Assembly: GCA_030141605.1 (NCBI GenBank)
Contig: JAQGDQ010001286.1
Span: forward strand, 1 to 49,691
Origin: Tubiluchus corallicola
Lineage: Eukaryota > Animalia > Priapulida
DNA length: 49,691 bases
Direction of reading: 5' to 3'
Shown: positions 39,422 through 49,482 of the stretch, one piece after another
Position numbering within the stretch: position 1 is the first letter of the stretch
How the letters are laid out: each line of letters begins with the position of its first letter
Translations under genes and position numbers: made by a program
Notes under the pieces: generated by a model
What the model saw: only the letters and a program-made list of their open reading frames with translations
Told to the model about the DNA's origin: nothing
Databases searched by the model: none

Positions 39422-39491
39422 ATGATGGATCAGTATATGCTTAAACTTTTTACAGTTTATCTGTTCATTCTGGTTTATAGCGATTTCACAG
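39422..39491 (+). CDS. TTLL4: Putative first coding exon of the TTLL4-like gene, encoding a signal peptide
   Basis: ATG with an in-frame TGA two codons upstream. It encodes MMDQYMLKLFTVYLFILVYSDFT. The donor CAG|GTATGT is phase 1 and matches the phase-1 acceptor at 41305. The link is inferred. Confidence 0.5.
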
Positions 39492-40839
39492 GTATGTTGA
39501 CATTTTGTCGTACCATAATTATGTTATCATAGTGCAAGGTGTGCGCTTTAAAAACTTTTTATAAGGTCTATAAACCTTCTATTATAATGATCATAAGCTA
39601 ACGAACTATACTTGTAGGCCAACTCAGTGTTGTCTGCGTCTCTGGGCTTAAAGTCGTACAGTAGACTAAGCTTAAATGTTCAGTGCAATGTACTTTTTCA
39701 ACGACCGACTTCACTGGGAACAGTCAGCTGTGGAAAATACTACAAAATGAAAAAACGATTTTCTTATACATAAGTAAAATTCTATAAAAGAGCTTTATAG
39801 TTTTGTTGCTGATGTTGTTTATTAATTCACTGTTAGTCCATTATTAATCTATTAATCCTACTTGCGCAATTCTGGTGATTATCCATTGAGTTTTATCCAA
39901 TAATACGATACAATGTATAAGCACATGTAGGCCATAACTATGATATAGATATAACACTTTATGATATAACTGCATAACAAGCATTAATTATAACGGTGAT
40001 ATCGGTGGTCAGTGCTGGCCGGCTCGCTGAAGAAGCTGGACAAACTGCTGAACTCGTTTTTCCTTTACTGAACACTTTACACAACAATGACTTCTCAGGT
40101 GACTTGTTGAAAACTCATTAAATTACACCATAAATGAAACGTTCTACTTAATGAATGTTCTTGATGTTTTTAATAAATTTTAGTATTCTTAATGATTTTA
40201 ATAAATTTTGAATTAAAACGTATTACGTTTACACAATCTAGCAGGAAATCTGATTGTGCAGGCAGTCCAATTGTGCAAAAATTTGTCATATTACGTTCAG
40301 AGTATGTTTTTACAGCGATTCTCATACTAATAAACGATAATATCTTAACGAAAATTGCAATAAGAAGCCAAATACTCCTAGAGTTAGCTCTCCTTGAAAC
40401 ATTAACGTTTGTCTGACATTCGTTAGACTTGTTTTTATATAGTCTATATATATATATATATATATATATATATACTCAAGAAAATTACTCAAAACACTTC
40501 TCGGTTAGTTCATTAACCATCCATGTTTGGTAAATACAAATTTTTGTATTTCAAGTAGAAACTAAAGTTTGCTACCTAACGACTTACATAGTAAAATAAT
40601 GATAAAAAGAAATTCATATTAAAAGTAAGGTGAGTCGTTGGGTATCAAACTTGTTGTTGGCATAGGAAGGTCGTATTATAAATTTAAATTATAAATTACC
40701 ACTATAAATTTAGAGCATCTGTGACCTTGCGAACAGCTACACAAATTTCGTACATGTACGCCATGCATTGAGTGTGGAAATGTTCAGTACTTCAAACATT
40801 AGGTATACTATATAATCCCTTCTACTCATAAGCTGGTAG

Positions 40840-41267
40840 CAGGGGCGTATCAACACTTTACGACACCCTAGGCTGATAGTTCTGTCCCGCCCATCTTTAT
40901 TGTGAATTTATGATTGTATATGTAATGAGCAGATTAAACAATTACTTGTGGTGTGTTAGAAATACTATTAACCTAGTTTCTACATGGTCATTATTAACTA
41001 CATGTGTTTACATTCATAGCGCTTATACTCAAGTAGGCTGCGCAACTACTTGTTCTGTAATACCTTGCACCCATATGTGGTACTTATATAGAAGCTAAAC
41101 CAAGTAACTGCCTGTGGTGTGTTATAAAATGAGCCCTTTACGGGAATATAAAAGTATACACTTTTCCGAGGCGAATAAGAATTTTTTCTAAAATGTGACG
41201 CTCCTCAAACTTTGGCTCCCTAGGCTATAGTTAATCTATAGTTAGCCTATTAGTTAATACGCCACTG
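40840..41267. mobile_element. hAT (Tip100-like) MITE, 428 bp
   Basis: TIRs CAGGGGCGTAT / ATACGCCACTG and a perfect 8-bp TSD GCTGGTAG (40832-40839 and 41268-41275). Confidence 0.9.
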
Positions 41268-41304
41268 GCTGGTAGAAAAAAAGAAAAACATGGCTTCTTT
41301 TTAG

Positions 41305-41565
41305 ATACATACACGTTGGATGCAGTCCAGATTCATGTGACCTCTTCAAAGCAAAATACTAGCAAACCTGATGCATGCCCTCGGAGGATACCAGCGCTAA
41401 TACCAAGTTTATTCTCTAATATTTCACCTGTACTCAACTTTGCTGTACCTGGACAGATTATTGAAGAATTGCCAAGCAGAGTGAAAAAGGTACAAAAATG
41501 GAGAGTGCATCCCAGAAGGAAACCAGTGTTGGCGGTTGTTTTGCATTCAAAGTTTAATTTAGCAG
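41305..41565 (+). CDS. TTLL4: TTLL4-like exon
   Basis: ttttag|AT ... GCAG|gtagg. PALIPSLFSNISPVLNF...EELP...KW parallels TTLL4 PALIYSLFPNVPPTIYF...EKLP...RW. Confidence 0.85.
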
Positions 41566-41629
41566 GTAGGCTTGTTCGTTAAGTATTGCCTCAACGTAGC
41601 ACTGCGAGTTTAAATTTTATAGAGAGTCT

Positions 41630-42130
41630 CGGGGCAAAAAGAGAGGGAAAGCGAGAGAGGAAGGCAGCGAAAGAAAGAGAAAGGGAGAGAAAGAGAGAAA
41701 AAATGAGAGAGAGAGAGAGCGAGAGAGAGAGAGAGAGAGAGAGAGAGAGAGAGAGAGAGAGAGAGACGGGGGAAGGAACCGTGAAAATGGAAAACAATGA
41801 AAGAGGGGGAAGGACTGGCAGAGAGGGGGGCAGAGAAAGACAGAGAGTAAGGGAAAGAGGGGGAATAGACAGAGAGAGAGAGAGAGGGGGGATAGACAGA
41901 GAGAAAGATTGAGGGGGTAAGGGGGAGGAAACCGTGAAAATGAAAGAGGAAGACAGGCAGAGAAGGGGCAGAGAAAGAGAGAGTGAGAAAGGGGAACAGA
42001 GAAAGAGAAAGAGGGAGAGGGGGAAACCGGGAAAAGAAAGAAAGAAAGAGGGTGTGAAAGGGAAGAGAGCAGAGATAGCGAATGCGGGTGGGCAGATGGG
42101 TGGCTTGTTGGTTGGGGGTGGGAGAGAGAG
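41630..42130. repeat. Purine-rich (GA)n low-complexity tract (intronic)
   Basis: Directly visible. It explains the ER-rich and SL-rich ORFs. Confidence 0.9.
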
Positions 42131-42204
42131 AAATCAACGAATTAACTGCTATTTACACAATCCTCTCCAGTTATTTCCAATTTACTTTTTTTCATTTTTT
42201 TCAG

Positions 42205-42281
42205 AGGATGATCAGTGGGTTGGTTGCTGGTGTTTATTCATGAAGCTACCTGAATATGAAATGCTAAAGGATCATCAAAAA
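42205..42281 (+). CDS. TTLL4: TTLL4-like exon
   Basis: tttcag|AG ... AAA|gtaagt. EDDQWVGCWCLFMKLPEYEMLKDHQK parallels DDWLGCWGHHMK...EHQK. Confidence 0.9.
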
Positions 42282-47285: not shown

Positions 47286-47374
47286 CAAAATTACTTATCT
47301 AGATGATGGTAGCCTAAAAAGAAATTAACATATTTACATTAAGCAAGTTGCATTATCACAGAAGACTTTTTCAG

Positions 47375-47509
47375 TGCTGAATCTACCAAGCATTCCATGT
47401 TCAAAGGACACGCCAAAAATCCTGGCTGCTGTTACGAAATGCAGGGATACGATATTATCCTTGACGACAAGTTGAACCCATGGATGCTGGAAATCAATGC
47501 AAACCCAAG
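47375..47509 (+). CDS. TTLL4: TTLL4-like exon with catalytic residues
   Basis: [28 protein letters not shown] parallels CHELFGFDIMLDENLKPWVLEVNISPS; the metal-binding D and E-x-N are intact. Confidence 0.95.
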
Positions 47510-48235
47510 GTATTTTAAGTATTTTAAGATATCAAAAAAGTTTATACGTATATGTGTTACTTTGTTGTATGTGTTTATGAGCTTAAATTATGTAGTTTTT
47601 TTGCACTATGGGAGTTCCCTTTTTATGTCTGGTGTATACAGTTTTTCTCTTTTTTTATACTCTGTTCTAAGGTTCAATAAACATTACAAGTGCATTAATT
47701 TCCTTCATAATTGCCTGGTTTTGTTATTTATGCATTCGCGTCATTCAGTTGAATTCGCATAATTCATCTTATGCGTTGTAAATTTACAAAAGTTGCTGTA
47801 TAGTTATTTCTTTTTCACTCTTGATGTTAATTTTGCTCTTGTTGTTCATACTTTACATCAAATTACTGGTCCGTTCAACATGTTTATTGAATGTTTGTTG
47901 AGCATAGACGATCGTTTCGACTGTAATAGTCATATTCAATACTATAAATCAAGCCAAAAAAGGGTAGTATGCACTTCCGGTATTTCACAGGGTCATTGTA
48001 ATATCGAAAGTACTGGTGGCGCTAAAAATTCATTACATACAATCCCCTTTTGGGCTTGATTTATAATATTGATACAGACTGTCGCAGTCGATACGCTCAA
48101 TAAACATGTTCCCGTAGGCTGGCTCTTTCATGTATGTACTGTGTACATTCATTTGGCGTCATCCACAGCCACAAATAATGCGCGTACATTCCGTAGGTAC
48201 ATGTTGACTTTAACTCTTTGTATGTTTATTACCAG

Positions 48236-48340
48236 CATAGATGCACACGCCCTAGAAGAAATTTTCAAATTCAAACTGGCGCGAGATGTACTAACTCTGG
48301 CAGGAATTCGAATGTCGACGTTGACATCACTAGCTACACG
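48236..48340 (+). CDS. TTLL4: TTLL4-like exon
   Basis: IDAHALEEIFKFKLARDVLTLAG parallels LHSSSPLDISIKGQMIRDLLNLAG; accag|C ... CG|gttagt. Confidence 0.85.
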
Positions 48341-48629
48341 GTTAGTGTTAATCCCTTACCTATATCGTAAACTGATTTTTAACGATTTATTTTCATTTTA
48401 TGCATATTATCACTGTATGTCTATACAAATATATATATATATATATATATATATATACTAACAAAAACACTAGAGAAAAACACACGCAGCCAGCAGTTCA
48501 ACATTAATTCAATTTAGATGTTTAGCTTTCGGTACATGTCATCGGAACAAAGCAGTTGACTAAGGGAAATATTGCGAATGCATGTAACACACTGAATTAA
48601 TTAAATTTCACATTTTGTCTTTTTTACAG

Positions 48630-48723
48630 CCATAATTCTGTTGCCACGCCAGACAGGCATCCCAGACTTGCTCCGTATGAGGAAGAAAAACGTTACTACT
48701 TTGCAAACTTGGCTTCCGAAGAT
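48630..48723 (+). CDS. TTLL4: TTLL4-like exon
   Basis: tttttacag|C. Encodes HNSVATPDRHPRLAPYEEEKRYYFANLASED, and its phases join both neighbouring exons. Confidence 0.75.
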
Positions 48724-49271
48724 GTACATTAAGTCTTTCAATTCTTATTTTAAATACAATATTTACTTAATAAATTTGATCTCCGTCTGTTTCTAGAAAG
48801 GCATTCAAGTCACTAGCATGAATCCAAGATCATTTCCCTCCTCTTGTAATAACTGATGGACTTATGTTCTCTCCCTTTTTGAGTTCTTATCTGATCATTC
48901 TTTCAGCACTTTTCTTTTTCAGTAGTGATTCCTAAGACAATTTTCCTACAGTAATCTATGAAACTAAATTATTTTAATTAATTATATTTAACTGCTAATT
49001 ATTGTTAAATTTTTATTTTTAAATTATTTTATTTGATATATAATGTAGCCTGTTTGTATTCGATTAATACCCAGATATATTGTTGAGTTATTTGTGCTTT
49101 ATTTGGCGCCATCGAAAGAATAAAGAAGACGATAACGAAATCGCTATACAAAAACTGTCACCCATCAATTAACTAACCAGACCCAACTTTTATAACTTCT
49201 GCAGCCAAGCACACACTCAGAAATGTTACCGTGCTGCCTATAAATTTCTTATTATTATTATATTTTGTTAG

Positions 49272-49482
49272 GAAATCAGAACGAAGATTCTTAACGTTCT
49301 CACTCCAGCTGATGTACGTGAGTTAGTAGAAGCTGAAGACGAGTACAATCGACGCGGAGGTTTCCAGCGCATCTTTCCCAGTCCAACATCAGACAAATAT
49401 TCAAAATATTTCGAGACGAAACGCTACAGTAACTTGTTACTTGATGCATGGATCAAAAAATATCACAACAATCCCGAAAAAG
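49272..49482 (+). CDS. TTLL4: TTLL4-like exon (last one visible; may read through to TAG at 49512-49514)
   Basis: ILNVLTPADVRELVEAEDEYNRRGGFQRIFPS...YFETKRYSNLL..W..KY is the C-terminal motif shared by TTLL4/5-type enzymes (LTPDDVR..EDEFSRRGQFERIFP). Confidence 0.93.

Follow-up and report, generated by a model that had tools for sequence, protein, structure and literature searches.

The TTLL enzymes are known for writing the tubulin code in the cytosol. Here we describe a TTLL4-like gene in a 49,691-nucleotide stretch of DNA from the priapulid Tubiluchus corallicola (GenBank assembly GCA_030141605.1, contig JAQGDQ010001286.1, positions 1 to 49,691; the whole stretch is referred to as the window), whose predicted product may enter the secretory pathway. 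A secreted TTL-like ATP-grasp ligase was predicted earlier for C7orf58/CPED1, according to the accessible part of PMC2824669. As described in that part, CPED1 comes from a separate family, and its ATP-grasp domain shares one polypeptide with cadherin-like and PC-esterase domains, whereas the TTLL4-like protein is stand-alone and has none of those domains within the window. Because CPED1 is a separate family, a secretory move of the TTLL4-like protein would be independent of it; the secretory functions of both proteins are predictions. A literature search, with limited coverage of subscription papers, found no secreted TTLL4, and the terms “secreted”, “signal peptide” and “Golgi” are all absent from the available part of a 2026 review of glutamylation (PMC13137484). 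Judged from its sequence, we consider it a little more probable than the reverse that the gene product is an ATP-grasp ligase descended from TTLL4, with its acceptor pocket rebuilt, that would be directed by a signal peptide into the endoplasmic reticulum (ER) and would add glutamate to secreted, non-tubulin carboxylates.

The window is repeat-rich animal DNA with introns, has a GC content of about 35% and carries a TTA repeat at its end. The TTLL4-like gene runs on the plus strand from 39422 to 49514 in 12 exons, all of which have GT/AG ends and which join in a frame without an internal stop; all exon coordinates of the original prediction hold, as does its uninterrupted TTLL4-like frame. The introns measure 114–1813 nt, the longest being intron 1. 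If exon 12 (49272–49514) runs to the stop at 49512–49514, the protein has 541 residues, and if it is spliced at the donor at 49482, it has 531 residues plus a further exon past the window. Exon 2 (41305–41565) encodes a linker of about 30 residues, which contains the sequon N41, and then, from residue 53 on, the first part of the TTLL4 core; exons 3, 8 and 11 lie at 42205–42281, 46265–46363 and 48630–48723. The claim that the exon at 41305 requires a phase-1 partner was confirmed, and the open frame 5′ of 41305 contains no in-frame ATG. In addition, the conserved part of exon 2 precedes the first internal methionine, so that coding sequence must be supplied from further 5′.

The family assignment is supported by several lines of evidence. 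Three of the six exons scanned scored above the curated cut-off of 20.1 bits for Pfam PF03133 (TTL), at 41.4, 63.8 and 34.9 bits; they are exon 4 (42742–42942, E 1.3e-10), exon 6 (44771–44899, E 1.9e-17) and exon 9 (47375–47509, E 1.3e-8). The top named match among 150 relatives was TTLL4 of Mugil cephalus (P0033; 38.6% over 508 residues). The TTLL4 alignment spans residues 53–541 throughout, including a TTLL4-type C-terminal extension in exon 12, and a further exon past the window is possible. In three trees the protein paired with an unnamed Logan protein of 465 residues, P0001, with Shimodaira–Hasegawa-like approximate likelihood-ratio test (SH-aLRT) supports of 99 (47 rows), 98 (32 rows) and 100/98 (24 rows, careful search). 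The tree program warned that the branches of both proteins are long. When rare residues were counted against the 46 other rows, the protein and P0001 had 32 in common, whereas the runner-up row shared 15 and the median row 5, which argues that this grouping is probably real. The two proteins thus probably form a genuine clade, and the identity to P0001 in exon 12 is 69%. In a quick tree of 32 rows, the two fall on the TTLL4 side and away from the TTLL5/6-like rows (SH-aLRT 99), whereas the long branches keep the trees from placing them within TTLL4. On this sequence evidence, the gene is a descendant of TTLL4 and not of TTLL5/6.

P0001 begins near residue 100 of the protein, so it has no N-terminus for a comparison of the signal. 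It matches the TTLL6 structures (PDB 6vzq and 6vzt) at E 5e-48, which were used for residue numbering; in this numbering it has the same Lys283-to-Arg change, retains Arg180 and one sequon, and is without K377. The ESM Atlas sets P0001 among generic TTLL4 clusters. No third member of the clade was found among the 120 matches listed of 435 in an alignment search, an alignment search with exon 12 of 166 candidates returned P0001 only, and two metagenome scans for clade members gave nothing. Similarly, none emerged from 50 candidates when exon 2 was compared with longer proteins.

The candidate first coding exon is a 70-nt exon on the plus strand at 39422–39491, presumably joined to 41305, which encodes a predicted cleavable signal peptide. 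It has an in-frame TGA two codons 5′ of its ATG, an A at −3 of each of its first two ATGs and a phase-1 donor, CAG/GTATGT, of 6.4 bits. The encoded peptide, MMDQYMLKLFTVYLFILVYSDFT, has a basic residue (K8), an uncharged hydrophobic stretch at residues 9–19 (hydropathy 2.42 over 11 residues and 1.31 over 19) and a likely cut after S20, where the small residues V18 and S20 occupy the −3 and −1 positions by inspection, under a hand-made rule and not SignalP. The basic n-region, the hydrophobic h-region and the small residues at −3 and −1 of a signal peptide are all present. A membrane anchor was also considered and rejected, as the 19-residue hydropathy is too low.

We scanned for exons that run from an ATG to a phase-1 donor, using a donor matrix and the hand-made signal rule. 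On the plus strand, only one of 87 candidates with a donor of at least −3 bits was signal-like, and this was 39422–39491, which lies 1.8 kb 5′ of 41305. Simulation of 3 Mb of intron-like DNA put the probability of meeting a signal-like exon within 5 kb at 0.005, 0.021, 0.047 and 0.19 when donors had to reach 6, 3, 1 and −3 bits, respectively; these figures are optimistic, because the signal rule was written after the candidate had been seen. Thus, the exon with an ATG, an in-frame stop, a phase-1 donor and a signal-like peptide that the original prediction had put forward was recovered as the only signal-like partner on the plus strand, with a simulated chance within 5 kb of 0.5–2% for a donor as strong as this one. 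None of the 46 canonical TTLL4 rows passed the signal rule, and none of the 912 matches obtained by tblastn with 275 relatives lay upstream of 41300. Introns of phase 1 are over-represented where signal peptides are cleaved, a layout that is typical of secreted proteins (PMC1626468, accessible part). The signal-like exon is probably beyond chance, and it appears reasonably likely that the protein has a signal peptide and is secreted.

Residue roles were taken from the available part of the TTLL6 structure paper (bioRxiv 10.1101/2020.06.07.139295) and mapped onto the protein and onto a control set of 46 canonical TTLL4 cores, each with at least 450 aligned residues and at least 280 bits; eight cluster duplicates and P0001 were set aside. 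The results showed that TTLL6 K125 and K174 are retained as K151 and K202 in exon 4, R219 and R241 as R246 and R268 in exon 6, and T263 and N264 as T289 and N290 in exon 7 (45014–45145), and that the equivalent of G181 is retained as well. D376, E389 and N391 in exon 9, which we take to be the invariant metal-site residues, are also retained, which brings the count of unchanged catalytic and metal-site residues to nine of nine. On the donor side, K377 is retained as K406 in exon 10 (48236–48340), K283 is changed to Arg316 in exon 7, and Y265 and S266 are replaced by Trp and Gly. According to the accessible part of the TTLL6 paper (bioRxiv 10.1101/2020.06.07.139295), K283 and K377 bind the donor glutamate and are both called invariant in glutamylases, and Y265 and S266 contact the donor through backbone amides. 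Because the ATP, phosphoryl-transfer and metal-site residues and K377 are kept, the protein looks catalytically competent and can plausibly still bind glutamate. An intact TTLL4-type ligase, as had been claimed, is thus supported by the Pfam TTL domain, the best named matches, the tree and the kept catalytic residues alike.

The acceptor site is altered. In the phosphate loop of exon 5 (43449–43528), Gly208 takes the place of the Arg that marks TTLL4 as a branch initiase, which is residue 180 in TTLL6 numbering and is present in all 46 canonical cores; the protein lacks the initiase signature and should therefore not be filed as a TTLL4 monoglutamylase. Ile362, present in 44 of the 46 cores, is Ala392, Ser363 is Asn393, and Ala179 is Ser. 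The signature Gln180 and His362 of the elongase TTLL6 are absent as well (Gly and Ala in the protein), and because both signatures are absent, the protein fits neither the initiase nor the elongase class. In summary, it resembles TTLL4 in the start of the core, the C-terminal extension, the catalytic residues, the best named matches and the side of the tree on which it falls, and differs from it in having a predicted signal peptide where TTLL4 has a soluble N-terminus, in Gly for the initiase Arg, Ala for Ile362 and Arg for Lys283, in the disappearance of both catalytic-Asn sequons and in the lowest net charge. The net charge of the core is +6, whereas the canonical cores range from +8 to +36, and this low charge would fit a loss of microtubule binding. 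The number of cysteines was uninformative (4, compared with 3–12 in the controls).

The protein has three sequons, N41, N62 and N192, and these NTS, NIS and NNS motifs had been offered as a hint of secretion. That argument did not survive comparison with cytosolic cores, in which the mean count exceeds three: the core of the protein has 2 sequons and 52 cytosolic cores have 5.1 on average, and the sequon count was rejected as evidence for secretion. The position of the sequons is a separate matter. In canonical TTLL4, sequons lie on the two catalytic asparagines in 45 and 44 of the 46 cores; the protein retains both asparagines, N290 in exon 7 and N391 in exon 9, and both sequons are gone. Both motifs were found in 159 of the 265 relatives scanned, of which 126 kept both sequons and one had lost both. 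Glycosylation of these asparagines in the ER could block the enzyme, and the low core charge together with the loss of both sequons would fit an enzyme of the secretory pathway.

On the reading that we favour, TTLL4 would have been duplicated, and a phase-1 signal exon would then have been captured in place of the N-terminal extension. With 39491 spliced to 41305, a leader of 15–20 residues would be cleaved near S20 to release a soluble luminal or secreted protein. ATP is present in the ER and the Golgi, and the ligase would use this luminal ATP. The chemistry would be that of the family as in TTLL6, in which ATP yields an acyl-phosphate on the acceptor carboxylate that is attacked by the amino group of the donor. 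The donor would be an acidic amino acid, with glutamate the likeliest, since K377 and R241 are kept and K283 is changed only to Arg, and the acceptors would be carboxyl groups of acidic secreted proteins and not tubulin tails. A broader version, in which a small set of lineage-specific TTLL4 duplicates moved to the secretory pathway, diversified their pockets and add amino-acid side chains in an ATP-dependent manner to secreted or cuticle proteins or glycans, is more tentative, and we place it somewhat below an even chance; this copy would then keep the glutamate-type donor site, and the sister copy would lose it.

Several observations weigh against a secreted glutamate ligase. The minus strand holds two signal-like chance look-alikes among its 83 candidates, and the real donors of the gene go down to −2.9 bits, so that the chance of 0.19 obtained with weak donors is pertinent. 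Two acceptor-like AGs, at 39455 and 39480, have pyrimidine tracts that coincide in part with the hydrophobic stretch, one of 33 frames 5′ of the real acceptors of the gene gives an ATG-led stretch of equal hydropathy, and a competing phase-1 donor of 6.6 bits, without an ATG, lies at 38432. In bees and sawflies, divergent TTLL4-like proteins carry a comparable change in this motif and lack a signal. The loss of the sequons would also be explained by a change of substrate, since both sites line the remodelled pocket; only 85 of 111 highly conserved columns (77%), and six of the ten Ser/Thr ones, are kept, and the sister protein P0001 retains one of the two catalytic-Asn sequons. Finally, K283, called invariant in glutamylases in the accessible part of the TTLL6 paper (bioRxiv 10.1101/2020.06.07.139295), is Arg316, and for this reason the donor may not be glutamate.

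Part of this evidence would be accommodated by a cytosolic TTLL4 paralog that evolves rapidly, begins with a short soluble segment and modifies a non-tubulin cytosolic or ciliary substrate; the “signal” would then be a translated pyrimidine tract. We regard this as unlikely. The true 5′ end would in that case be another upstream exon, for example one that uses the donor at 38432, or a micro-exon that starts after one of the two acceptor-like AGs and stops at 39491, and 36800–41300 contains 24 phase-1 donors with an ATG or an acceptor, one of them stronger than that at 39491. However, these competing exons lack an ATG or have weak donors, and none is TTLL4-like. A divergent cytosolic paralog has precedent in the signal-less bee and sawfly proteins and in 14 of the 46 canonical rows, which have at most 100 residues before the core (some are partial); by this count, the long N-terminal extension that the original prediction had ascribed to TTLL4 is not universal. 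The original prediction had cautioned that T-rich intronic DNA can mimic hydrophobic peptides; intron run-ins imitate signal peptides in database fragments such as P0039, P0048 and P0083, and the GC content of the signal exon (0.31) is nearer to that of intron 1 (0.33) than to that of the other exons (0.40). A cytosolic paralog nevertheless requires the ATG, the purine at −3, the upstream stop, the basic residue, the hydrophobic core, the strong donor and the fitting phase all to be coincidental (0.5–2% within 5 kb), and it leaves the loss of both sequons as a rare event (1 of 159).

It is less likely still, and in our view rather improbable, that the protein is secreted while its remodelled pocket takes another donor, accepts something other than protein (for example a uronic-acid glycan or a small metabolite) or binds without ligating. 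Arg180Gly, Ala179Ser, Ile362Ala, Ser363Asn, Tyr265/Ser266 to Trp/Gly and Lys283Arg all fall at near-invariant sites of the pocket, including one of the two lysines stated to be invariant in glutamylases (bioRxiv 10.1101/2020.06.07.139295, accessible part), and a peptide–glycan role is proposed for the secreted C7orf58 ligase domain in the part of PMC2824669 that was available. On the other side, K377 is retained, Arg at position 283 preserves the charge, Y265 and S266 use backbone amides, and none of the nine catalytic and metal-site residues checked has changed. Very improbable is an assembly artefact, by which the T run ahead of 41305 would have lost one base and a cytosolic protein without any upstream coding exon would start at the ATG at 41290. 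With A at −3 and G at +4, that ATG has a strong context, and it is one base out of frame ahead of the homopolymer run, but none of the nine runs of at least 5 bases in the 1524 nt of exons 2–12 breaks the frame, and the site at 41305 is an ordinary acceptor with 10 of 17 pyrimidines, within the 8–16 found in this gene. Contigs of sequencing run X1, which is RNA by guess, were uninformative for any of these readings: over 30200–48900 they matched dispersed repeats only, at no more than 95% identity, and covered no exon and no splice joint.

Further features were observed in and around the gene. The 38432 donor (38350–38432) and weak acceptors at 39394–39410, just 5′ of the ATG at 39422, could form a 5′ untranslated exon. 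Local duplication has left scars, namely a decayed, out-of-order copy of exon 8 in intron 5, 5′ of exon 6 and outside the protein (44584–44651, plus strand, 91% over 68 nt), and a 66-nt tandem repeat (45756–45885); an intron piece is common to 45205–45300 and 46465–46572. Dispersed repeats near 32000–32330, 43000–43330 and 45280–45560 match many contigs of run X1. By eye, two tandem arrays and long trinucleotide tracts are seen at about 35400–36800, 21400–22380, 12960–13620 and 29690–30260. A neighbouring gene in divergent orientation (23581–22877, minus strand) is represented by a single exon of 235 codons, which begins like a signal peptide and has a phase-1 donor. Its first ESM Atlas match was a CBM96 cluster, of carbohydrate-binding type (score 0.94, 154 features in common), and serves as a lead only; no clear Pfam or PDB match was obtained, and all 59 candidate frames scanned for its downstream exons were blank.

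Among the relatives, the divergent TTLL4-like group of bees and sawflies (P0173, P0177, P0178, P0181, P0185, P0186, P0189, P0193, P0194, P0200, P0201, P0207, P0208, P0212 and P0235) has other residues in place of the Ile-Ser that follows the catalytic Asn, in a manner close to that of P0001, and lacks a signal peptide; it possibly represents another change of specificity. P0043, a hypothetical TTL-family protein of 539 residues from JGI/IMG, has a signal-like N-terminus and a tree position far from the TTLL4-like gene, and it is a possible independent secreted TTL-like enzyme.

If the secreted glutamate ligase is real, the gene offers a close derivative of TTLL4 that has gained a signal peptide, kept its catalysis intact and shed the sequons of its active site. 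Such an enzyme would be tractable, because the TTLL6 structures map the pocket and both donor and acceptor are directly assayable. It would point to amino-acid ligation as a modification of secreted animal proteins and would show which changes an enzyme needs for work in the ER. If a whole secretory family of such duplicates exists, chemistry like that of the tubulin code would extend beyond the cytosol, as an ATP-dependent system not described before.

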